From an uncultured Poribacteria bacterium (lineage in GTDB: Bacteria > Poribacteria > WGA-4E > WGA-3G): DNA of 64,000 bases. Numbering within the stretch: position 1 is the stretch's first letter; every line of letters starts with the position of its first letter. Made by a program: the position numbers and the translations under genes. The notes beneath the pieces are model-generated. The model worked only from the letters and a program-made list of their open reading frames with translations. It had not been told where the DNA came from and did not search any database. The stretch lies in NCBI GenBank assembly GCA_951813565.1, contig OX638351.1, forward strand, positions 1,664,001-1,728,000, in the 5' to 3' direction. Positions 48,774 through 61,526 of this stretch are shown here, piece after piece.

Positions 48774-50267
48774 TTAACTCATAACTTGCCAAATCGGTTC
48801 CGCACCCTCAACACCGACGAGTTTTTGATCTAATCCGCTATGGAAGTAGGTGAGTTGATTAGGATCGATTCCAAGTTGATGGAGGATTGTTGCGTGCAGA
48901 TGTCTGACATGAAACGGGTCTTTGGCAGCCGCACTACCGAGTTCATCCGTTTCGCCAACACTGATACCGCCTTTGATACCGCCACCCGCCATCCACATCG
49001 TGAAGCCATACGAGTTGTGGTCACGACCTGTGCCTTTGGCATATTCTGCTGTCGGTTGACGACCAAATTCACCACCCCAGACGACGATAGTTTCATCAAG
49101 TAACCCGCGTTGTTTTAGGTCTTTAAGGAGTCCAGCAATCGGTTTATCAGTTGCCTTGGCGTGCTTGTTGTGATTTCTCTCAATATCACCGTGTGCGTCC
49201 CAATTGGCATCGTTATGGGCACCGCCAGAGTAGAGTTGAATGAAGCGCACACCACGTTCAACTAATCGCCTTGCCAAAAGGCATTTTGTGCCGTACTCCT
49301 CCGTTTCCTTCTCATTGATGCCGTAAAGTTCCTTGATGTGTTCTGGCTCACTGTTCAAGTCAACCGCTTCGGGTGCTGCGGATTGCATTTTGTATGCTAA
49401 TTCATAACTTGATATCCGTGCTGCGAGATCGGTGTTATCAGCATGTTTTGATAGATGTGTTGCATTATATTTATGTAAATAGTCGAGTAATCTACGTTGT
49501 TGGCTGTCGGACATTCCCTGTGCACGTTTTAAATTGAGAATAGGTGTGCCATCCGAACGAAAGACGGTTCCTTGAAATACGGCAGGCATATAGCCACTAC
49601 TCCAGTTTTTAGCCCCACTAATTGGTCCACCTATCCTGTCAAGCATCACAACGTATCCTGGCAGGTTCTCGTTCACACTCCCAAGTCCATAATTCACCCA
49701 AGACCCAAGTGATGGGTGACCGCTGATGATACGACCTGCGTTCATCATCAACATCGCTGATCCGTGTAACGGTGAATCTGCAGTCATTGATTTAATAAAT
49801 GCAATATCATCAACGCATGTGGCAAGATGTGGAAATAGTCCTGAAACCCATTGTCCTGATTCTCCGTACTGTTTGAATTCCCATTTTGGTCCGACAATTC
49901 GTCCTTGATTTCTTTCACCACCACGTCCTTTTGTTTTCACTTGGACAGTCTTATCGTTTAACTTAATTAACGACGGTTTGTAGTCAAAAGTATCTACATG
50001 GCTTGGACCACCATACATGAATAGGAATATAACATGTTTTGCCTTGGGTGTGAAGTGTGGTTGTTTTGGAGCAAGAGGATTAGTGTAGGGTGATACCCCA
50101 TCTGCTGCGAATGCCTGTGAGTCCAGAAATCCATCTGAAGTGAGTAATCCAGTTAGAGCTAATGACGCAAAACCACCTGCAATGTTCCCAATAAATTCTC
50201 TACGTGTTTGACCACAGAAAGAACCATTTGAATTTGTATCTCTACTTGTCTTTGAACGACTGTTCAT
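48774..50267 (-). CDS. DUF1501 protein with Tat-like leader
   Basis: TRREFI; GGPSHVDTFDYKP, ARRLVERGVRF, WDAH, GEFGR, GRDH. Confidence 0.88.
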   Translation of the reverse strand: MNSRSKTSRDTNSNGSFCGQTRREFIGNIAGGFASLALTGLLTSDGFLDSQAFAADGVSPYTNPLAPKQPHFTPKAKHVIFLFMYGGPSHVDTFDYKPSLIKLNDKTVQVKTKGRGGERNQGRIVGPKWEFKQYGESGQWVSGLFPHLATCVDDIAFIKSMTADSPLHGSAMLMMNAGRIISGHPSLGSWVNYGLGSVNENLPGYVVMLDRIGGPISGAKNWSSGYMPAVFQGTVFRSDGTPILNLKRAQGMSDSQQRRLLDYLHKYNATHLSKHADNTDLAARISSYELAYKMQSAAPEAVDLNSEPEHIKELYGINEKETEEYGTKCLLARRLVERGVRFIQLYSGGAHNDANWDAHGDIERNHNKHAKATDKPIAGLLKDLKQRGLLDETIVVWGGEFGRQPTAEYAKGTGRDHNSYGFTMWMAGGGIKGGISVGETDELGSAAAKDPFHVRHLHATILHQLGIDPNQLTYFHSGLDQKLVGVEGAEPIWQVMS

Positions 50268-50317
50268 TAGGTATCTCCATTCTTAGAGTTACTGTTATGC
50301 AAATTCGTATATACGGC

Positions 50318-53215
50318 TTAATCTAAAAAGATAAATTCGTTTAAATTCAATGCTAACAATGCAAATCTGTCAAGTGCGATGTCTGTAGTTACACCATTCT
50401 GTTGCTGGAGTTCAGAGATGAAATTTAATGCATGTTGTATCTCTGTTTGTTCGGGTTCACGACATAATACAAGACGTAATCCATATTTCACACGATCCTC
50501 TATCGTAATTCCACCTTCCCAACGCATTCTATTTGCAAATATGTGTGCTTGTTCATTAATGAACTTTCCGTTAAGCATCGTCAGTGATTGCGTTGGTACA
50601 GTTGTTGTAAACCGAACAGGACAGGTAGAATCTGTATTTGCTTGGTCATATAGGTTCAATATTGGTACAAGTAACGAACGTTTTACCTTTACATAAACAC
50701 TTCTCCGATTTGTCTCATCTGGTGGAGATTGCCCCCAAACACTCCCTGGTCTTGAGGCAGTTGCCAACACTTCTTCAGGTAGTTCTGGATATATACTTGG
50801 TCCTGCCATTTTCAAGTTCAGTTTACCAGTTATCCATAACACTGTATCCCGAATCTCCTCGGCAGTTAACCGTCGCATGTTGAATCTCCAAAATAGGTCA
50901 TTATTCGCATCCTTATGTATGTAAGTCGGATTGCTCTGTGTAGACATCTGATATGTGTTTGATGTCATAATCAACTTATGCATCGCTTTTATTTTCCATC
51001 CAGAAGTGATGAATTCGGACGCAAGCCAGTCAAGAAGTTCAGGATGTGTAGGAGGTGAACCCAATTGCCCAAAATCGTTGGATGTACGGACGATACCACG
51101 TCCGAAGTGATATTGCCAAATGCGGTTGACCATCACGCGCGCGGTAAGTGGGTTGTCATCCTTTGCAACCCATTCTGCAAAGACACGTCGTTTACCAGAT
51201 GTCTTTGACTCTTTTGGCATCACTGGTGTCTCTACCACAGGTGGATTTAGCACAGAAGGAAATGCTGGGTTAACCTCCCGACCAACAAGAGTTGGATTAC
51301 CTCTCCGCAAAATGTGTGTCGGTGTCTGCGAGTCTTCTGTTACTACCAAGGCTTGATGTTCATAGGGTATACGTTGGCGATGACGTTGATCACGCTGTTG
51401 TTTTATCACATTATATTTATCCACTAATGATTTTAGTTCTTCATTAGATTCAATATAGTCTTTGTGTGTATTCAGCAATTTTCCGAAATTGATATTTGCT
51501 GTGGTAGAAAGAAATTGTCTTTCAATATTTGGAGCAGACCACGAAATTTCCAGACTCGGTTTATCCAAATCCTTATTAAAATATTCTAGACGAATCGGTA
51601 TATCACCTGTCTCAAGTGCAAGTTGTGTTTCACTATCACCGCTTAATTCGCTTACTAACTGACCGTTGAGTATCAGTCTAAATTCTCCATTCAAATTAAG
51701 ATGAAAGGTATAAGTTGCATCTTCAGCTACTTGTAATGTGCCCACAAAGACCAAACCTATGTTTTTCTTTGGATTTGCAGGTGCAAGGGAGAATAGGTTG
51801 CTAAATAATCTACCTTCGGCAGTCAATTCAAGAGAATCAAAATCACTTGGAATCTGTTCAAAAATACCACGATAGAAACGATAGGTCAAGTTTTGTATAG
51901 GAGATTCGGTGATGTTAGGTGCAATCGGTTCAGAATGAATTTTAGCAAGCTCTATTTTTATGTTTTCCTGTATATGAAAGAGTTGATCGTGATATTCTTC
52001 TTCTGCTTGTCGTTTTTCAGTAAGCAACCTGTTACGTTCTGCCTGTTGTTCGGGTGAACCAATATCTGCAAGTGGTCCACCGTTGTGGGGTCTAATGTCG
52101 TGGAAAAATGCGAGAAAACTATAATAATCCTGCATTGAAATAGGATCAATTTTATGGTCGTGGCAACGTGCACATCCTATTGTCATCCCCAGCATAACCT
52201 GTCCAGTAGTAGACACAATATCATCAAGATAGTTATACCGTGCAAGTTTGCGATCAGCAGGACCCGTATCCCACACTCCAAGTTTATGATAACCTGTAGC
52301 GATAACGGTTTCTGACGTTGCAGTATCAAGTTCATCACCAGCTAATTGCTCTTTTAAAAATTGGTCGTAAGGTTTATCTTGATTGAAGGAATTTATAACA
52401 TAGTCTCTATATCGCCATATATATGGTTTATCAGAATCGCTTTCATATCCGTTTGTCTCAGCATATCGAACAAGGTCAAGCCAATGTCGTCCCCATTTTT
52501 CACCATATCGTGGAGACTTAAGGAGTTTGTCAATGAGTTTCTCATAAGCATCAGGTGCAGTGTTGTTAAGAAATGCGTCTACTGCTTCTGGTGAAGGTGG
52601 TAGACCTGTAAGATCGTAGTATACACGACGAATAAGAGAAAGTTTGGTTGCAGGTGCGGCAGGGGTTAGTCCATTTGCTTCCAACTTTGCAAGAATAAAT
52701 GAATCAATCGGATTCAGTACCCAATTTGCCTTATGTACTGATGGTATAGATGGTTGTGTTAATGGAAGATATGCCCAATAATTGGATGCTGAGTCAATAT
52801 TCGGATGAGTATCGTTTTCAAGTGTGGGGTAGGGTAGTCCTATGTTGATCCACTTTGCTAAAATTTCAAGTGATGCGTCATCTAACTTGCCATCCGGTGG
52901 CATTTGTGCTGTTTCTTGGTTGTAACCAACCATTTCAAGTAATAAACTTTGATTTGGATTATCTAATGAGACTGTAGCACCGTAATGTCCACCTTCAAGG
53001 ATTTTTTCCCGATTCGTCAAGTCGAGTCCACCCTCTACTTCAGTCCTGCCACCGTGGCATTGGAGGCAGTTTTCTTCAAGAATAGGCTTCACTTGAGTGT
53101 TAAAGAATTCAGTTTTTTCTTTATCGCTCAGATTATTCGCATGACTGGTGCTAAGAAAAATCAACGCACATAAGAAAACAATGATACGAAAACAGAAATA
53201 ATAGGAATGTTGCAT
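50318..53215 (-). CDS. Planctomycete-type cytochrome c plus DUF1549/DUF1553 protein
   Basis: CLQCH and CARCH; NPIDSF, DLTGLPP, WLDLVRYAET, PTHPELLDWLA; central PA14-like insert. Confidence 0.88.
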   Translation of the reverse strand: MQHSYYFCFRIIVFLCALIFLSTSHANNLSDKEKTEFFNTQVKPILEENCLQCHGGRTEVEGGLDLTNREKILEGGHYGATVSLDNPNQSLLLEMVGYNQETAQMPPDGKLDDASLEILAKWINIGLPYPTLENDTHPNIDSASNYWAYLPLTQPSIPSVHKANWVLNPIDSFILAKLEANGLTPAAPATKLSLIRRVYYDLTGLPPSPEAVDAFLNNTAPDAYEKLIDKLLKSPRYGEKWGRHWLDLVRYAETNGYESDSDKPYIWRYRDYVINSFNQDKPYDQFLKEQLAGDELDTATSETVIATGYHKLGVWDTGPADRKLARYNYLDDIVSTTGQVMLGMTIGCARCHDHKIDPISMQDYYSFLAFFHDIRPHNGGPLADIGSPEQQAERNRLLTEKRQAEEEYHDQLFHIQENIKIELAKIHSEPIAPNITESPIQNLTYRFYRGIFEQIPSDFDSLELTAEGRLFSNLFSLAPANPKKNIGLVFVGTLQVAEDATYTFHLNLNGEFRLILNGQLVSELSGDSETQLALETGDIPIRLEYFNKDLDKPSLEISWSAPNIERQFLSTTANINFGKLLNTHKDYIESNEELKSLVDKYNVIKQQRDQRHRQRIPYEHQALVVTEDSQTPTHILRRGNPTLVGREVNPAFPSVLNPPVVETPVMPKESKTSGKRRVFAEWVAKDDNPLTARVMVNRIWQYHFGRGIVRTSNDFGQLGSPPTHPELLDWLASEFITSGWKIKAMHKLIMTSNTYQMSTQSNPTYIHKDANNDLFWRFNMRRLTAEEIRDTVLWITGKLNLKMAGPSIYPELPEEVLATASRPGSVWGQSPPDETNRRSVYVKVKRSLLVPILNLYDQANTDSTCPVRFTTTVPTQSLTMLNGKFINEQAHIFANRMRWEGGITIEDRVKYGLRLVLCREPEQTEIQHALNFISELQQQNGVTTDIALDRFALLALNLNEFIFLD

Positions 53216-53409
53216 AACTTCTCCTATCACATTGTGTAATTGACATCAAACACCAATGCTTGAGGATATCTTGAGTTTGACAATATCTGCTGAACGGCAA
53301 GATTTCATGATCAACTTCACTATAATAACATATTTGAGGAAAAGAAATCTATGAAAATCAGCTAAATTCTGATTTTCATTCAATCTTGCCGAGTATGCCC
53401 ATTTTTACT

Positions 53410-54963
53410 TTACAACGAATCTTCTGTTTCCTGCGTTTCAGTTGGCACGACAGAAATCCGCGCAAGAAATGCGTTAGTGCTCCCCTTCTCACAGAACCAA
53501 TTACCCGTTGCGCCTAACCTAAACCGTTGTCCACAAACAAACTGGTGACGAATTTGTCCTGTGTCACCAGGCGGAATATCCCATGCTGAAGCAAGTGCGT
53601 CATCTGGATACCCCTCTGTGGGCAGTTCAACGTTAGCATCAAACAGATCGAACGAACCAGTCGCTTCACCCTCACCAACCTGTATATCAATAATAAGCGT
53701 TCCTCCTTGTTCATAAGAAGTAGCGTCAATTTCAGTAGGCGTATAATCCTGATAGCCTTCTCCCGGTCCGCGGAAGACATTCAAAACCTCCATCAATTCT
53801 TCCCTCTTTTCGTTGCTATCGGTGCGGTCTCCACCCGTTACTTGGGAGGTACTATCAATTTTCCCTTTCGCAACGTCCGCTAACAGTGATAAATACCTTT
53901 GTGCTGGATTTCGGCTTGGGAGTTTGTTTTCTGGCTGGTGCATAATTACCTCGGCATCAGGATTCAGCACCTGAATATCAACTGCACCTACGTAATTATC
54001 TTTGAGCGTTTTAGCGAAAATGCCGACCCCTTCACCCTCTGAATCTGCAATCAGTTCTGACAAATCGCGAAAGAGGACGCAGGTATTGACAAAATTCTCG
54101 TTGAGCACTTTGATGAGTTCCGAATTCGAGAGTGGACCCACCCTCAAGTTTTTACCATTCGCTCAGCAGGATTCATCGTCCAATGGGCCCCAGCTAATGA
54201 CTGCATGCATCGGACGTTGTGTTGCCTCCACTTTTTCAACTGCCTCTTCAAGCGGTAGCCAGTCAATTTCAGCAAACTTGTAGAACTTCAATTCTAATCT
54301 TTTGCGTGCCTCTTCGGATGTGACTGAACTTTCCCAATCAATTTCGTCTCGTGCTTTAGTTGAGGTGGCATGGAGTTTCATACGCGGCACGAAAACCATG
54401 TCAGCATACCCAAAGTCGTTAATATCCACATTGATATTGCGCGGTGGTAAAGCGAGCGAAAAGTCACAAACGACACCTATTTTCAGATTGATAAGCAATC
54501 GTCCTGAAAATTGCGATGGAATAAATCGAGCGACATCTATCAGATCGTCATCGTTGCGGCGTTTCGATTCCGGTTTGGGACGTGTTGCCAAAGTAAACTC
54601 TGCATGAATTCGGAACGTGATGTCGGCATAGTCCGGCGAAAGTGCGCGTAAGCAGGCGAAAGCCCCTTTCTCTCCATGGCGTAATTCTCCTGTAGCACCC
54701 AGGTGAAACTGTGAAAGGAACGGAATAACTTTGTCCAGATCCAATTCCCAAACATCACCTACCGCCACATTTGACGTTGGAAAAAAGGCGTTGAAAGCCT
54801 CTACTTTATACTCTCTGGTGGGTTCGTTTGGTGATAGATCAAAGAGTTCTATGTTTTCTGGTGAGTCTTTGTGTAGATCGTAAGTCGCATTGGTAATCGG
54901 GTCCCAGTGCGCATGGACTTGTAAGGTTGCTGTATTTTTCAAGACATTGTTAAGGTCTACCAT
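53410..54963 (-). CDS. Selenoprotein N (SELENON)-like selenoprotein, ~517 aa, UGA at 54163-54165 read as Sec
   Basis: Two ORFs in the same frame joined by a single TGA; GAFACL, FRIHAEF, PSQFSG, NVD, WGPLDDESC-U, LNENFVNT match SelN motifs as recalled; SECIS-like hairpin follows. Confidence 0.85.
54126..54147 (-). promoter_or_regulatory. Bacterial SECIS-like hairpin
   Basis: UUGAGGGUG-GGUC-CACUCUCGA; apical loop starts after 24 nt 3' of the UGA. Confidence 0.7.
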
Positions 54964-55065
54964 CGATTTTTCCTTTTACATGATTCATTTTATAGTTTCA
55001 TATATTATAAATTATACAGGCTACGGACAAATTTTGCCAAACTTATCGTATCATGAAATTTCTTG

Positions 55066-57105
55066 CTACAGGTAAGGTGTCACATCCCAAAGCATGATAG
55101 TGCCATCAAAACTACCACTTGCCAAAAGTGTGCCATCTGGTGAAAATGCAAGCGACTGAATATCTGTCGGATGTCCCCAAAGAGTAGTGATATTTTCTCC
55201 ACTTGCAACATCCCATAAGCTAATTGCCATTTTTTCCATTCCCGTTTGCCACCAGGTCCCCGAGGCAAGATAACGTCCACACGGTGAAAATGCCAAAGCA
55301 TAGGGTTTTTCTGTTTGAGTCTGTGGTATTGCAAAAAGCGTCGTCAAACTTTCAGCACACCACAAACGCAATTCGCCAAACATTCCGCCTGCAATTAAGT
55401 TACCATCTGGAGAAAATCTTATATTCATAAGTGTCTTAGGTTCACTTAATGGAAATATCGCAATTTCTTCACCAGACGCGACATCCCATAGTCTATTGGT
55501 ATTATCACTTGAACCACTCGCAAGTCGTTTGCCGTCTGGAGAGAAGCAAACTGACCAGATGAACTCTGTATGTCCGATAAATGGCTTTAACTTTTCCTTA
55601 TTTTTGAAATCCCAATGATATATTGTGCCCTCTCTGCTACTAACTGCAATTCTGTCACCTGTCGGTGCGACTGCTATTTTCCAAGTTAATTGTGCTTTTT
55701 CAGTAAATTCAGCAATCGGTTCGTCAGGTTTTTCAGCGTCCCACACACAGCCATAGTCTTCATTGCCTCGGATATACGCAGCGATGATGTTTCCGCAAGG
55801 TAAAACAGTGAAAGAGGTAATCCGTTTGTCCCCAAGTAATGTTTCTCGCGCCTGCTTACTTTCAACATCCCATAATACAATTCCCCTACGATCACTTGTA
55901 CTCGCAAGCGTCTTTCCATCCGGTAAAAATAGAACCGGATCTGGAACATAGTCAAATCTGCGAAGCGATGAGATTCGGTGTATGTTATGCCCCCTCTCTG
56001 ACTCTTTGCTCAATGTAATGTCTTTAAGAACCAACTGCGGAAACTCTCTAAACCACATAGCATCAATACTATTCGGATGAATTTCTGGAATGGGTAGTTT
56101 TTCCCTGCGTTCCACATTCCATACCTCAATAGTATTTTCTCCATCCACGATAACAAATAGCTCACCTTCTGTCGAGTAGAATGGTACTGCCCGAGTCGTT
56201 TGAAAATCAGTGTACACCTTCTTTTCCACACCCTTTGTCATGTCCCATACGAACAGGATTTCATCTCTACTACTAAATGCAAGAAACTCGCCACAAGGTG
56301 AAAAGGTAATAGTGTCAATCCAATCACTTTTCACTCTAAAGTGGGAGATGCGTTCACCTGTTATTATATTCCATACTGAGACGTAGTGGTTAATTGGATC
56401 GGCATCATCACGGGATTCGTCAGAAGTTAATCCAGCAAGTAGACAACTATTTTGAGAGAAACAATAATATCTGCCTGCGAACTTGAAAGTTAGATCATCT
56501 GTATCAGGACACCAGACGTAAGTTTGCGTGCCTTCTGTGCCAAGATTATCTGCAGTTGCAGCAACGTACTGCCCATTTGGTGAAAATTCCAGTTCGGTAA
56601 TATCAGCAGATATTACTTCACGTTCACCACGATCCATCTGTGCAACACAAACACCTTGATTCACATCTAATACCTCAACGATGCCTCTCCAATTCGCAGT
56701 AGCAACCCACTTACTATCTGGGGAAAAGGTAATGCGCCAATAGATATTTTGTTCTTGCATCCGTTTGATCTGTGCAAGGCACTCACCACTCTGAGCATCT
56801 AACACTTTGATTATGCCATCCCAATTTGCGATAGCAAGGCATTCACCATTTGGTGAAAAATCGACAGCAGAAATCATCCCGCGTTCTGTTTCCCACAGAG
56901 CGATAGGTGACTTTGACGACATCTCATACCACCAAAGTCCAATAAGTGTTCCGACAGCGAAATACTTTCTGTTAGGGGAAAGTGCCACTCTAAAATCCCT
57001 TCCTTTTCCCAAACGAGCAATTGCGCCATCAGGTAACGCCCATGTAGTTCCTTCAGTGTCACCCTGCACAACGTTGAATGGTGCGGGTCTTCTATTTTGT
57101 CTCAT
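55066..57105 (-). CDS. WD40-repeat protein
   Basis: TWALPDGAIARLG N-terminus, FSPDG/GH..WD repeats; AAGGAG RBS before ATG 57105. Confidence 0.9.
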   Translation of the reverse strand: MRQNRRPAPFNVVQGDTEGTTWALPDGAIARLGKGRDFRVALSPNRKYFAVGTLIGLWWYEMSSKSPIALWETERGMISAVDFSPNGECLAIANWDGIIKVLDAQSGECLAQIKRMQEQNIYWRITFSPDSKWVATANWRGIVEVLDVNQGVCVAQMDRGEREVISADITELEFSPNGQYVAATADNLGTEGTQTYVWCPDTDDLTFKFAGRYYCFSQNSCLLAGLTSDESRDDADPINHYVSVWNIITGERISHFRVKSDWIDTITFSPCGEFLAFSSRDEILFVWDMTKGVEKKVYTDFQTTRAVPFYSTEGELFVIVDGENTIEVWNVERREKLPIPEIHPNSIDAMWFREFPQLVLKDITLSKESERGHNIHRISSLRRFDYVPDPVLFLPDGKTLASTSDRRGIVLWDVESKQARETLLGDKRITSFTVLPCGNIIAAYIRGNEDYGCVWDAEKPDEPIAEFTEKAQLTWKIAVAPTGDRIAVSSREGTIYHWDFKNKEKLKPFIGHTEFIWSVCFSPDGKRLASGSSDNTNRLWDVASGEEIAIFPLSEPKTLMNIRFSPDGNLIAGGMFGELRLWCAESLTTLFAIPQTQTEKPYALAFSPCGRYLASGTWWQTGMEKMAISLWDVASGENITTLWGHPTDIQSLAFSPDGTLLASGSFDGTIMLWDVTPYL

Positions 57106-57143
57106 ATTAACTCCTTGATTTTTTGTTGATCCCAAACTTGGGT

Positions 57144-59153
57144 TTAAACATCTATATAGGGTTTGATATCCCAAAGCATGATGGCACCATCATAACCGCC
57201 ACTCGCTAAAATCTCGCTATCCGGAGAAAAAGCGAGACATTGAACATCACTGCTGTGTCCTCGGAAGGCTGCGATATTTTTACCACTCGAAACATCCCAT
57301 AACAGCACGGGACACTTTTTCATACCGAAGTCGCGTATCCACCACGCACCAGAAGCCAAATAGCCACCACATGGTGAAAATGCTAACGCAAAAGGATAAA
57401 AACTCTCTTGTGGTAGCGGTAGTGTCAAAATGATCTCACAATGAACGGTGTCCCATAACAGAAGTTCTCGAATTCTTCCACAGGCTATCAGACGACTGCA
57501 ATCAGAAAAGGCAATTGCACGAAATTTATTTGGAAACGCTTCAATAGACTCACCACTTTCAACATCCCACATTCGGGATTTAGGTCCAGTGCTGCTAATG
57601 CTTACCAGCAGTTTTTCATTTGGGCTAAAAGCAAGTGAATACGTCCCTTCATCATGTGCTTCGCACGCATGCTGTATGTGCTGTTTCTGCACATCCCACA
57701 CATACAGCATGCCATCACTATCCCCACATGCCAGTTTGTTGCTTTTGTGTGCGAATGCTGCCTTTGATACTTGCCGCTCTTGTTCGACAAGCGGTCTTTT
57801 TTCGTTGGGAAGTGTGAAAGTGGCAACTGGTGTATCAGTGTTTCCAATGTCCCATACCCTTGCAATTTTGCCATCGCGCCCTGTTGCGTAGATTTTTCCT
57901 TGTGACGACACAGAGACAATATATTCTCTTCCAGGCAGATTGAAACTGGATGGCAGTGAGGAGGGTTGGGTAATATCCCACAACATTACCTTCTCGTTTT
58001 CGCTCCAATACCCGCCTGCAAGCGTTTTTCCATCTGGCGCAAAAACCAGCGAAAAAGGAACACCTGTATGTAAATGCGGAAACGAACGTGGTTCAAAATC
58101 ACTTACCGTCCATTTCCGAAATTCACGGGGGTTCTTGGAAGCTAAAACATAAGAGGTGCCCTTTGGAACGTGGGCATCATGGAGATAAATGTGCTCTTCA
58201 AGGAAGCGTTCACACTTTTCACCGCACGCTACGTCCCACAAGATGAAAGCATCAGAAACTTCCAAAGCGTGCAGCACACCCTCTGGAGAGTAGAAAACTT
58301 TCTTCCGTTCCGTGCCAAGATTTTGAAATGTATGGAGCAACTCCCAATTTATGACTGACCAAACCCGGATTGCCCCATCTCGTCCTCCAGATGCAAGGAA
58401 CTTTCCACAGGGTGAAAAGACAACACTATAAACAAAATCAGGATGTTCTGTAAGACAAGTGAGTTGCTCACCTGTTTTTATATTCCATATAGCGATATAG
58501 TTGGAAGTGTGTTCGGTTTTAGGGATTCTAGGGATTCTCCAACCGAGATCTGCATGTGTGAATAAGCGTTCATCAGGCATTGTACAAGCGATTAAACTGC
58601 CATCCGGAGAGAAGGCAATAGGACGTCGTAGAATAGGAGCCCATATATAATTGGTATTGTCGTGAAATTTTGCAATCAGCTCCCATGTTTCAGTATTCCA
58701 GACGTATAAGATGTAGTCACGCTTATTGGAAATAGCGAGAAGCTGACTATCAGGCGAGAAGACGAGGTGGGAGACATAATCGTAAGATCTCTCCGCTTCA
58801 TTTCGTTCCATTTGTGAAATGCAAACACCTCTCTGCCAATCCCATACCTTGACGAGTCCGTCTCCATCGGCTGTAGCAAGCCACTTGCCGTTTGGTGAAA
58901 AGGAGACAGCATCAATATATCCCCTATCAGTGTCCCAGAGATCAATAGTAGCCATAGTGGATAAATCATACCACCAGATCCCTATAGTACTCCCGCATGC
59001 AAAGTGTTTTCCATCAGGAGAATATGATGTAGTGTTAGGCATTATTAGCCCTTGCCCTAATCGGGCGATTGCGTCTTCAGGAAGTTCCCAAGTCGTTATA
59101 TCGCTGTTTTCATACGGTGCTAAAGCAGGTGACCAATTTTTACTATTTTGCAT
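57144..59153 (-). CDS. WD40-repeat protein
   Basis: TWELPEDAIARLG, FSP repeats, LASGGYDG. Confidence 0.9.
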   Translation of the reverse strand: MQNSKNWSPALAPYENSDITTWELPEDAIARLGQGLIMPNTTSYSPDGKHFACGSTIGIWWYDLSTMATIDLWDTDRGYIDAVSFSPNGKWLATADGDGLVKVWDWQRGVCISQMERNEAERSYDYVSHLVFSPDSQLLAISNKRDYILYVWNTETWELIAKFHDNTNYIWAPILRRPIAFSPDGSLIACTMPDERLFTHADLGWRIPRIPKTEHTSNYIAIWNIKTGEQLTCLTEHPDFVYSVVFSPCGKFLASGGRDGAIRVWSVINWELLHTFQNLGTERKKVFYSPEGVLHALEVSDAFILWDVACGEKCERFLEEHIYLHDAHVPKGTSYVLASKNPREFRKWTVSDFEPRSFPHLHTGVPFSLVFAPDGKTLAGGYWSENEKVMLWDITQPSSLPSSFNLPGREYIVSVSSQGKIYATGRDGKIARVWDIGNTDTPVATFTLPNEKRPLVEQERQVSKAAFAHKSNKLACGDSDGMLYVWDVQKQHIQHACEAHDEGTYSLAFSPNEKLLVSISSTGPKSRMWDVESGESIEAFPNKFRAIAFSDCSRLIACGRIRELLLWDTVHCEIILTLPLPQESFYPFALAFSPCGGYLASGAWWIRDFGMKKCPVLLWDVSSGKNIAAFRGHSSDVQCLAFSPDSEILASGGYDGAIMLWDIKPYIDV

Positions 59154-59244
59154 AAACTTTTTCTCTTAATAATTGTTATATTTTAGATTCAAGTAATTTG
59201 AACTTGAGTGCCGCGTAACACTTGTAAGGCCAATTCAAACCGTT

Positions 59245-61287
59245 TTAAGAGTCTATGTAAGACTTCAAATCCCAAAGCATTATGACGCCATCGTAACCGC
59301 CACTCGCTAAAATATCGCTATCCGGAGAAAACGCGAGGTCCTGAACATCACTGCAGTGTCCTCGCAAGGTGACAATATTTTTACCTGTTGCTACCTCCCA
59401 CAATCTGATTGCAACTTTCTTTGTGTTCACGCCGCGTTGCCACAACGTGCCGGATGCTAAATACCTGTTACATGGCGAAAATGCTAAAGCAAATGGATCC
59501 CAACTATCTCGCGGCTGGGGGATAGTTAGGAATGTTTCACGACGCTCAATATCCCATAATAGAATTTCTCTCGCCCCACATGCAATCAAGCTGCTACAAG
59601 GTGAAAACGCAAACGCATAATTCCTTTCTGGAAACGCTTTGATCGGTTCACCGCTTTCAACGTCCCACAACCTGGAAACAGGGCCAGTTCTTACCATACT
59701 CACAATATACTTTTCATCTGGACTAAATGCTATAAATTTAATCCATTCCGAATGTGCTTTAAGTGTATGTCGTATATACTGTTGCTGTACATCCCATACA
59801 TACATTGTGCCATCACTATCCCCGCATGCCAACAAGTTGTTTGTCGGTGCGAACGCAACCGATGCAACCTGTCTCTCTTGATCCTCGGAATCGCTTTCTT
59901 GCTTTGGAAGTGTGAAAGAGGCAATCGGCATCTCATCGTTACCAATTTCCCATACCTTCGCTGTATTACCGTCAGGACCAAATGCATAAAGTTTTCCAAG
60001 AGACGATGCGGAGACAACAAGGTTTCCACCAGACGGATTAAAACGGGTTGGTGGATGTGTCAGATTGGTAATATTCCATAACATTACTTTCCGTCCCCAA
60101 CATCCACTTATGAGAGTCTTACTATCCGAAGCAAAGACGAGCGAATCCGGTATGCCTATGGACGAATAACTAAAACTACTTGGCTTAGAGTTACCAATTT
60201 CCCACATTTTTATCGATCTATTAAGGGCACTTTCAGTAGTAAAAATTAACTGATTTCCATTTGAAAAATGTGCGTTTCGGATACTTCCATGCGTTTCTTG
60301 GTGTGTGTAGTGCGTATCACCATTTTCTACGTCCCAAACAACGACAGTGTCATCTGATATTCCAGTAGCGCGCAGAATACCCTCTTTCGAATAGGATATT
60401 TGTATAAGGTTGACATCATAATCGCTGAATGTTTGGGTTAATTCCCAACTCGGTACGTTCCAAACATGAATTGTATTATCTTGTCCTGCAGCAGATAGGA
60501 ATTTACCACACGGTGAAAATTTTAGGCTACACACAAAATCGGTAGGTTCTGTTAGACATGCTAACCTTTCACCAGTTTCTATGTTCCATATTGCAATAAA
60601 ATCAGCGGAATGCTCAAGGGTGCGAATTCTACCTATCCTGTCAGCATAGTCAAACATTTTAGAGTCAGGCATCATACACGCCAGCAAACGACCATCCGCG
60701 GAAAAGGCAATAGGACGTGTAGATCCACGGAACCATTTAAAATCCGTTTCACCTTGAAATTTTGCGATCTGTTCACCTGTTTTTGCGTGCCAGACATATA
60801 CGATATAATCACGCCTGCTCGATACTGCGAGGTACTCACTGTCTGGTGAAAAGGCAAAGTGGGAAACCAAATTATATAGTCTTTCTGTATTATTTACGAT
60901 GCCCGACTCCGAAATGTTTGGTTGTGATGACAGGATAGGACGGTCCATTCTGGAAACGCAAGCACGCCGCTGCACATCCCAGACCCTAACAAGACCATCT
61001 CCATCACCAGTGGAGAGCCATCGACCATTTGGCGAAAATGAAATAGCTGAGATAAATCCTCTGTCTGTGTCCCAGAGCGCGATCGGTTCGAAGGTAGAAA
61101 CATCGTACCACCAGACACCTATGCAAGAAGCTACGACAAGGTACTTCCCATCAGGCGATGGCACGATATTTCCTATCATGCCTCCTTGTCCTAATCGGCA
61201 AATTGCGTCCTCAGGAAGTTCCCAAGTCGTTATATCACTGTTTTCAGCCTGCATTAAAGCAGGCGTCCATTTTTCATTTTCTTCCAT
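59245..61287 (-). CDS. WD40-repeat protein
   Basis: TWELPEDAICRLG; start MEENEKW set by RBS and paralog alignment. Confidence 0.9.
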   Translation of the reverse strand: MEENEKWTPALMQAENSDITTWELPEDAICRLGQGGMIGNIVPSPDGKYLVVASCIGVWWYDVSTFEPIALWDTDRGFISAISFSPNGRWLSTGDGDGLVRVWDVQRRACVSRMDRPILSSQPNISESGIVNNTERLYNLVSHFAFSPDSEYLAVSSRRDYIVYVWHAKTGEQIAKFQGETDFKWFRGSTRPIAFSADGRLLACMMPDSKMFDYADRIGRIRTLEHSADFIAIWNIETGERLACLTEPTDFVCSLKFSPCGKFLSAAGQDNTIHVWNVPSWELTQTFSDYDVNLIQISYSKEGILRATGISDDTVVVWDVENGDTHYTHQETHGSIRNAHFSNGNQLIFTTESALNRSIKMWEIGNSKPSSFSYSSIGIPDSLVFASDSKTLISGCWGRKVMLWNITNLTHPPTRFNPSGGNLVVSASSLGKLYAFGPDGNTAKVWEIGNDEMPIASFTLPKQESDSEDQERQVASVAFAPTNNLLACGDSDGTMYVWDVQQQYIRHTLKAHSEWIKFIAFSPDEKYIVSMVRTGPVSRLWDVESGEPIKAFPERNYAFAFSPCSSLIACGAREILLWDIERRETFLTIPQPRDSWDPFALAFSPCNRYLASGTLWQRGVNTKKVAIRLWEVATGKNIVTLRGHCSDVQDLAFSPDSDILASGGYDGVIMLWDLKSYIDS

Positions 61288-61526
61288 AAATATTGTCCTT
61301 TCCAATTGTTTAAATTTTGGGTTGTAATACTGTCTCTCTATGTTTAGATGTGAGCAGGTTTTCAGAAAATATAAAATGATGATCCACTTATACACATTAT
61401 TGGATGCACTTTTATGTTTACTGCCTGCACAAAATGGAGCGTATACAACTACCCTTAACCTGTTCTTGTTGTAAAACTCGATTAAACACACATCCCAAAT
61501 TCACGTCAAAACGAAATACCTAAATT

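Follow-up and report, generated by a model that had tools for sequence, protein, structure and literature searches.

A bacterial homolog of selenoprotein N probably encoded across an in-frame TGA in an uncultured poribacterium

The locus and its reading frame

The window analyzed here, a stretch of 64,000 nucleotides from contig OX638351.1 of an uncultured Poribacteria bacterium (assembly GCA_951813565.1, positions 1,664,001 to 1,728,000), carries on its minus strand a gene that appears to encode a bacterial relative of animal selenoprotein N (SelN; gene name SELENON). As listed by gene prediction, the locus consists of two open reading frames (ORFs), one of 266 amino acids (54963..54163, including its TGA) and one of 245 amino acids (54147..53410), which share one frame and are parted by the TGA (54165..54163) and five sense codons (A N G K N), the listed start of the second ORF being a TTG five codons past the TGA. 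This arrangement, on which the original prediction of one selenoprotein rested, was reproduced by our ORF listing and translation. When 54963..53410 is read with TGA as selenocysteine (Sec, U), the product has 517 residues, of which only U267 stems from a recoded codon; it lies in the context ...HAVISWGPLDDESC-U-ANGKNLRVGPLSNSELIKVLNENFVNT..., and the motifs GAFACL, FRIHAEF and PSQFSG precede U267 in the order that had been reported. Because no upstream extension of the frame is possible, the protein starts with MVDLNNVLKN...; it has no signal peptide. The gene and the sites around it are laid out as follows.

55011..55040, minus strand: promoter-like site of the sigma-70 type, TTGGCA-18 nt-TATAAT, matching at 11 of 12 and located some 48 nt ahead of the ATG (consensus only)
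54970..54975, minus strand: Shine-Dalgarno-like AAGGAA, 6 nt before the ATG (by sequence reading)
54166..54963, minus strand: codons 1-266, ending ...WGPLDDESC, covering the N-terminal beta-rich domain and the first part of the thioredoxin-like domain
54364..54927, minus strand: N-terminal beta-rich domain, residues 13-200 (predicted model)
54163..54165, minus strand: putative selenocysteine codon 267, an in-frame TGA directly after Cys266 (conservation and read-through translation)
54126..54147, minus strand: SECIS-like hairpin (SECIS, selenocysteine insertion sequence) within the coding sequence, 9-bp stem, with a 7-bp core at 54128..54145 and the apical loop GGUC at 54135..54138
53413..54162, minus strand: codons 268-517, covering the rest of the thioredoxin-like domain, the linker and the C-terminal module
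53854..54279, minus strand: thioredoxin-like domain, residues 229-370 (predicted model)
within 53413..54162, minus strand: disordered linker, residues 371-384 (predicted model)
53443..53805, minus strand: C-terminal beta-sandwich module, residues 387-507 (predicted model)
53410..53412, minus strand: TAA stop of the full-length gene (read-through translation)
53351..53379, minus strand: terminator-like hairpin with a T-rich run behind it, 31 nt past the stop (consensus only)

The whole frame is bracketed by promoter-like, ribosome-binding-site-like and terminator-like sites. The promoter-like and terminator-like matches are weak evidence, because they occur about as often as chance would supply them (for promoter-like sites, 4 in the region where shuffles predict 4.0; for terminator-like sites, 1 where 2.0 are predicted).

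Decoding of the TGA

With the read-through protein as query, 1,037 matches were obtained in 131 of the phylum's 176 genomes searched, and among the 150 matches listed, nearly all rows that span residue 267 show exactly one TGA. The TGA stands directly after Cys in 32/32 loci that we opened (the 30 best and the genome's two paralogs) and in 20/20 further loci chosen among rows at 40-58% identity, so that all 52 family genes opened, down to about 35% identity, agree. A TAG hit in another frame of L062 proved spurious and was set aside. Orthologs of the window gene, found at 70-88% identity in two genera, share an invariant C-U-ANGKNLR. With respect to selection, the ratio of nonsynonymous to synonymous substitution rates (dN/dS) against the closest ortholog, L026, is 0.057/0.442 upstream and 0.057/0.428 downstream of the TGA, or 0.13 on both sides, which argues that the downstream half is translated in this frame. 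Positions 54163-54165 are furthermore identical in contigs of four public runs from four studies, one of these runs possibly being the window's own source. Since the TGA is conserved in both sets of loci, the runs agree and dN/dS is equal on the two sides, the layout is neither chance nor sequencing error, and 54963..53410 is a single gene.

The genome holding the window (5.43 Mb, a single contig, 95% complete) also holds the Sec machinery that the original prediction had proposed to look for. We found selA (607 bits), selB (344 bits), selD (372 bits) and tRNA-Sec (78 bits), all above curated cut-offs, the tRNA-Sec gene lying just downstream of selB on the same strand (5209008-5211116). The selD gene (4610940-4611866) itself contains one in-frame TGA and is probably a selenoprotein gene. 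A genome-wide reassignment of TGA was considered and ruled out, since 6 of the 30 long frames in the window end in TGA.

If the TGA were a real stop, the locus would be a split or decaying gene giving a 266-aa protein and possibly a separate 245-aa C-terminal protein. Gene callers treat it in this way, with many database entries ending at ...DDESC, and the TTG five codons past the TGA could serve as a second start; natural deletion variants of the ortholog exist as well (P0002 and P0010, described below), and because selenocysteine is usually inserted with low efficiency, truncated product would probably be made in any case. We nonetheless regard this explanation as exceedingly improbable, for it has to accommodate a TGA kept in all 52 genes and in another phylum, a downstream frame under the same purifying selection as the upstream one, animal and Cys-form homologs that are continuous across the site, a predicted thioredoxin-like domain that would be cut midway and a full Sec machinery in the genome.

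Comparing homologs at this codon, a check that the original prediction had recommended, yielded, beside the uniform TGA of the 52 genes, Cys at the Sec position in four homologs (P0187, P0191, P0193 and P0212); Cys forms are what is expected for a selenoprotein family. Other residues were found as well. In P0256 a Cys-Cys pair is shifted by one residue, and Phe falls in the Sec column; Ala stands there in P0270; and one poribacterial subclade has Gly (P0006, P0008, P0009, P0014 and P0015), Trp (P0004 and P0007, of which P0007 has lost the Cys too) or Thr (P0011). A non-Cys sense codon at this site had been named as grounds for abandoning the selenoprotein reading. Such residues do exist, but the Gly, Trp and Thr forms are confined to a single subclade other than that of the window gene, where they stand beside Sec forms, and residues of this kind do not overturn the Sec reading. 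Judging from these alignments, Sec is the rule at the site, and some lineages have abandoned the selenium center. On the sequence evidence as a whole, the apparent stop is almost certainly read as selenocysteine.

The codon is followed by a hairpin, UUGAGGGUG-GGUC-CACUCUCGA (54147..54126), whose stem begins 15 nt and whose 7-bp core begins 17 nt after the UGA. Bacterial SECIS elements lie inside the coding sequence, a short distance past the UGA, and have a G-rich apical loop; the window hairpin agrees with this description. We aligned the hairpin in 46 of the 52 sequences, omitting six whose 63 nt are identical to another row. In this alignment 88.6% of the cells of the 9-bp helix are paired, whereas sliding the 3' partner by 1-3 columns leaves no more than 60.6% paired. 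Four pairs vary on both sides (14 cells), which was equaled in 0/500 shuffles. At pair 30-35, 35 rows have G-C and 9 have A-U; at pair 24-41, 45 rows have G-C and one has C-G; and at pair 29-36, C-G occurs in 31 rows, U-G in 3 and U-A in the window copy only, 11 rows being unpaired. Applied to the same 46 rows, RNAalifold recovers the 5-bp core unprompted. Two loci in Planctomycetota metagenome-assembled genomes (MAGs), with G+C-rich flanks, have the same TGA followed by a GAGRGCG-GGUC-CGCUCUC hairpin.

The same hairpin might act as a general stimulator of read-through, with the UGA decoded by a near-cognate Trp or Cys tRNA or by another suppressor, and the homologs with Trp (P0004 and P0007) or Cys show that these residues are tolerated at the position. 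This too we hold to be very improbable, given that the genome has a complete and apparently functional Sec system that includes a Sec-containing SelD, that TGA also serves as an ordinary stop in the window, that the hairpin has the position, size and G-rich loop of a bacterial SECIS, and that the homologous animal residue, going by the protein names, is Sec.

Kinship with animal selenoprotein N and the spread of the family

The link to animals came only from an exhaustive profile search. Searches of Pfam, NCBIfam and PDB sequences with the read-through protein gave no useful match, and two word-index protein searches (138 matches, 120 of them listed, and 36 matches) yielded bacterial or metagenome entries throughout, with no named animal protein among them. 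A profile built from 14 N-terminal halves, all ending ...ESC, and searched against 1.84 billion cluster representatives gave 476 matches at E <= 0.001, 195 of them at E <= 1e-30. One match, a Lymnaea stagnalis (snail) protein ending ...WGALDDQSC, reached E 1e-36; in fish, birds, mammals and molluscs, its longer relatives bear the names "Selenoprotein N", "SELN" or "SEPN1". By BLASTP, the window protein aligns with fish SelN (142 bits, E 5e-41, 28% identity, query 13-342) and coelacanth SelN (137 bits, E 4e-39, query 45-346), both alignments running through the Sec site, as well as with a scallop entry that stops at Sec (94 bits, E 8e-25). SELENON similarity on both sides of the TGA, for which the original prediction had suggested a search, is thus present in the fish and coelacanth comparisons.

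A 27-row alignment is colinear from the LxVxAxW first strand to a C-terminal YLxFL. The Cys column is invariant in 27/27 rows, with the starfish SelN row showing C for U in the next column, and the motifs common to bacteria and animals are GAxACL, FRIHAEF, PxQFxG, WGxLDDxSC, LRxxxL and LNxxF. The human motifs quoted in the original prediction recur in the fish and coelacanth sequences, P[GA]QFTG among them, the comparison being with animals other than human. A protein-atlas cluster reached with the N-terminal ORF is automatically named 'Putative selenoprotein n 1' (score 0.94), which we treat as a lead only. By these alignments, the window protein is a bacterial member of the SELENON family and a true relative of animal SelN.

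We found no description of a bacterial SelN in a literature search whose scope left aside subscription journals, book chapters and theses, and none in the available text of a 2026 paper on a bacterial selenoprotein database, a 2026 review of prokaryotic selenoproteomes and a 2026 review of SelN. A French group studying SelN has reportedly worked on a poribacterial homolog, of which that search showed no trace. In one earlier study, SelN is stated to appear animal-specific (PMC2375036), and a 2020 survey of endoplasmic reticulum (ER) calcium components counts the SelN EF-hand among the domains recruited at the base of Metazoa (PMC7016017).

The relationship of the bacterial and animal genes was examined in an unrooted tree of 51 rows and 364 columns (IQ-TREE, short search), in which sponge SelN is not among the rows. 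The 12 animal sequences form one clade (support 100 in the Shimodaira-Hasegawa-like approximate likelihood ratio test, SH-aLRT), whose stem measures 1.48 changes per column and which lies outside the two well-supported clades formed by the poribacterial rows. The window gene is one of the 19 rows of the first of these clades; the second, of 14 rows, contains the tandem paralogs, two Cys forms and those with Gly, Trp or Thr. P0191, a Cys form, is grouped with the Planctomycetota loci, and the backbone is unresolved.

The original prediction had raised either horizontal transfer or a bacterial origin. A gene recently acquired from the sponge host, rather than an old bacterial family, would suit an organism that dwells in sponges (source names give Poribacteria, and some runs are labeled sponge metagenome), and sponges do have a SelN gene with a eukaryotic SECIS (PMC3473315). 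However, the position of the long-stemmed animal clade (SH-aLRT 100, stem 1.48) outside the poribacterial clades, in a tree without sponge SelN, makes recent exchange between sponge and symbiont appear unlikely, and the bacterial side is represented by 476 clusters, 131/176 genomes of the phylum, many paralogs and Planctomycetota MAGs, by genes that have no EF-hand or anchor, and by a bacterial-type hairpin within the frame. Recent acquisition by the bacterium is therefore given very little credence. The unrooted tree gives no direction for an ancient transfer. As a possible rather than a probable history, we tentatively suggest that SelN is an old bacterial Cys-Sec protein of Poribacteria, Planctomycetota and related lineages, which entered the animal stem once by transfer and then gained its anchor and EF-hand.

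Within the bacteria, the family comprises 476 clusters at 50% identity. The genome studied here has three SelN-type genes, namely, the window gene and a tandem pair about 1.1 Mb away; the second gene of that pair, L023 (2854568-2858875), encodes 678 aa with two copies of the C-terminal beta-sandwich module. Other poribacterial SelN-like genes have the same Cys-TGA and GGUC-type hairpin as the window gene, but most bacterial paralogs have a signal peptide or lipobox and read SCUG, whereas the window orthogroup has neither signal peptide nor SCUG. The C-terminal module is missing from L053 and L054. A search with a three-row alignment of sense-codon (Cys-type) forms found only 3 loci, those of the Planctomycetota MAGs among them, so the range of the family outside Poribacteria is poorly sampled.

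In related genomes the ortholog has decayed, and two relatives have lost the core of the protein. In P0010 (831 aa), the product of the adjacent upstream WD40 gene (55066-57174 in the window, minus strand) continues in frame into the C-terminal module, the only SelN part left, with 84% identity over the module; P0010 looks like the product of a deletion of the entire SelN core. P0002 (374 aa) has an internal deletion of the same ortholog in which about residues 140-300 are gone, including the Sec.

Further rearrangements were observed among family members. In P0192, P0220, P0229, P0234, P0244 and P0271, the N-terminal beta domain is split by a coiled-coil-like insert of about 200 aa with LEKxL repeats; this set appears to end without a thioredoxin-like domain, and P0244 extends for another 300 aa or so at the N terminus. 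In P0212, a region resembling extracytoplasmic function (ECF) sigma-70 factors is fused ahead of a Cys-form SelN, and P0040 has a similar sigma-like region and a membrane segment before two copies of the C-terminal beta-sandwich. P0003 consists of the post-UGA half of one SelN gene running into the pre-UGA half of the next, its contig carrying two tandem SelN genes in one frame with no stop between them. In three runs, positions 53637-53670 within the C-terminal module are also matched by low-depth contigs whose flanks differ on both sides, probably the same module in paralogous genes.

Around the window gene, three consecutive WD40-repeat genes lie upstream (55066..61491, minus strand; 702, 669 and 748 aa), WD40 being a eukaryote-like repeat family said to be common in Poribacteria. 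Downstream are a PSCyt1/PSCyt2/PSD1 protein with a PA14 domain, a DUF1501 protein and 6-phosphogluconate dehydrogenase. The first two (970 aa, then 497 aa; 48774-53230, minus strand) form a pair typical of Planctomycetes-type genomes. None of these neighbors points to a partner.

Predicted fold, proposed function and comparison with known systems

An AlphaFold model of the full protein (mean predicted local distance difference test [pLDDT] 84.3, predicted template modeling score [pTM] 0.65) consists of a beta-rich part (residues 13-200), an alpha/beta part (216-365) and a beta-sandwich (388-507), with a disordered linker (371-384) between the latter two. Cys266-Sec267 follows strand 252-257 and precedes helix 271-275, which in this model is the usual place of the redox motif in thioredoxin folds. 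When residues 229-370 of the predicted model were compared with solved structures, the matches were DsbH (Z 12.4, root-mean-square deviation 2.9, 118 residues aligned), a Thermus thioredoxin (Z 12.3), the Brucella Thioredox_DsbH protein 7tkv (Z 12.0), AGR3 and ERp19 (Z 11.1) and the UAS domain of UBXD7 (Z 10.0). Residues 387-507 resemble GOLD domains (Z 9.8) and similar jelly-roll sandwiches. The N-terminal domain modeled alone reaches a pLDDT of 94.7, and an exhaustive structural scan with it returned generic beta-barrels only, the best at Z 6.4, below a meaningful level. A nitrobindin-like or lipid-binding role of this domain was considered and rejected, as the matches behind it are of this generic kind (Z <= 6.4). 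Foldseek matches of the whole model were likewise set aside, being dominated by spurious multidomain matches, and a PDB sequence search found no solved structure of any relative.

We propose a model for the decoding and action of this protein. A ribosome arriving at UGA-267 would meet the GGUC-loop hairpin, which would recruit SelB carrying Sec-tRNA(Sec), and selenocysteine would be inserted beside Cys266. The Cys266/Sec267 pair could then cycle between selenol/thiol and selenenylsulfide states. Such cycling has been proposed for other adjacent Cys-Sec centers. Going by fold and motif, the protein may serve as a thiol-selenol oxidoreductase acting on oxidized client cysteines or peroxide-derived species, the conserved N-terminal beta domain probably holding the client or ligand and the C-terminal GOLD-like beta-sandwich being a lineage-specific add-on. 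Because the window orthogroup has no signal peptide, it would act in the cytoplasm, whereas animal SelN (ER lumen) and most bacterial paralogs (exported, with a signal peptide or lipobox) act elsewhere.

Taking homology, TGA conservation and Sec machinery together, we consider it highly probable that the two ORFs form what the original prediction had described, a single protein of 517 aa with a vicinal Cys-Sec motif, and that it is a SELENON-family selenoprotein decoded with SelB and predicted to work as a cytoplasmic Cys-Sec oxidoreductase. Several observations weigh against this reading or parts of it. With respect to the hairpin, the 81 nt around the UGA have no folding advantage over shuffles (z -0.58), which leaves the comparison between genes as its support; the stem also overlaps the conserved peptide L-R-A/V-G-P-L-S, and its conservation is hence partly protein-driven. 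The codons used there, AGA/AGG for Arg in 46/46 rows and CUC for the pairing Leu in all but a few, are those that pairing calls for. With respect to the codon, among the phylum matches listed, G134 (no stop) and G025 (one TAG) span residue 267 without a TGA, and against the ortholog L029 dN/dS is 0.16 before and 0.32 after the TGA, in an alignment whose register is not assured there. The occurrence of Gly, Trp, Thr, Ala or Phe at the position means that Sec is not indispensable to every member, and the core-deleted P0002 and P0010 mean that the ortholog is dispensable in some genomes. Animals read SCUG at the redox motif and the window gene reads SCUA, the SCUG form being found in the genome's own paralogs and in the Planctomycetota loci. 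The N-terminal domain has no convincing solved relative, with no Foldseek match at E <= 0.001 (E > 0.03). No RNA data set is among the public runs listed as carrying the locus. The proposed catalysis, the client and the cytoplasmic site of action are inferences.

SELENON is a human disease gene (SEPN1-related myopathy), and the enzymatic reaction and structure of its product are unresolved. A large bacterial family with the same Cys-Sec center alters the picture of an animal-specific protein and raises the question of where the gene originated. It also provides small soluble proteins for crystallography, redox biochemistry and genetics, and the window copy is a good candidate, having no signal peptide, anchor, EF-hand or need for glycosylation and a confidently modeled core. 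Should the old bacterial origin be true, the soluble form would be a direct and easily expressed stand-in for the chemistry and client recognition of the human protein. For annotation, about a thousand such genes in the phylum appear to be split at the UGA in public databases.

Compared with animal SelN, the bacterial protein is colinear over about 330 residues at 28% identity, covering the N-terminal beta domain and the thioredoxin-like domain, and its vicinal Cys-Sec falls in the same alignment column. The N-terminal extension of animal SelN, which carries the membrane anchor and the EF-hand region, is missing from the bacterial rows, and so are several insertions of the animal protein; the window protein has no Pfam match to an EF-hand family. 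Conversely, the poribacterial proteins have an extra C-terminal module of about 120 aa that is found neither in the animal rows nor in the Cys-type rows or the Planctomycetota proteins. The animal gene has its SECIS in the 3' untranslated region, whereas the bacterial gene has a hairpin directly after the UGA, and animal SelN resides in the ER lumen, whereas the window orthogroup, having no signal peptide, is predicted to be cytoplasmic. According to one report, animal SelN senses calcium and acts on SERCA2 (PMC7474598). A partner of the SERCA2 type is not expected in a bacterium.

In Escherichia coli fdhF, too, the SECIS is a stem-loop in the coding sequence that closely follows the UGA and has both G and U in its apical loop. 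The window hairpin has a GGUC loop and a stem sequence that is specific to this family and common to the Planctomycetota loci. In fold, the thioredoxin-like domain is predicted to superpose on the group of DsbH, Thioredoxin_7, AGR2-AGR3, ERp18-19 and UAS domains with 114-125 aligned residues, the redox residues lying likewise past the first strand. The window protein has adjacent Cys-Sec rather than CxxC, and no Pfam or NCBIfam sequence match connects the window protein to families of this type. Mammalian thioredoxin reductase ends in Gly-Cys-Sec-Gly, and its adjacent Cys-Sec is thought to form a selenenylsulfide. Its fold and the position of its motif are unrelated, as that motif is carried on a flexible C-terminal tail, whereas the Cys-Sec pair of the bacterial SelN is predicted to lie inside a thioredoxin-like domain.

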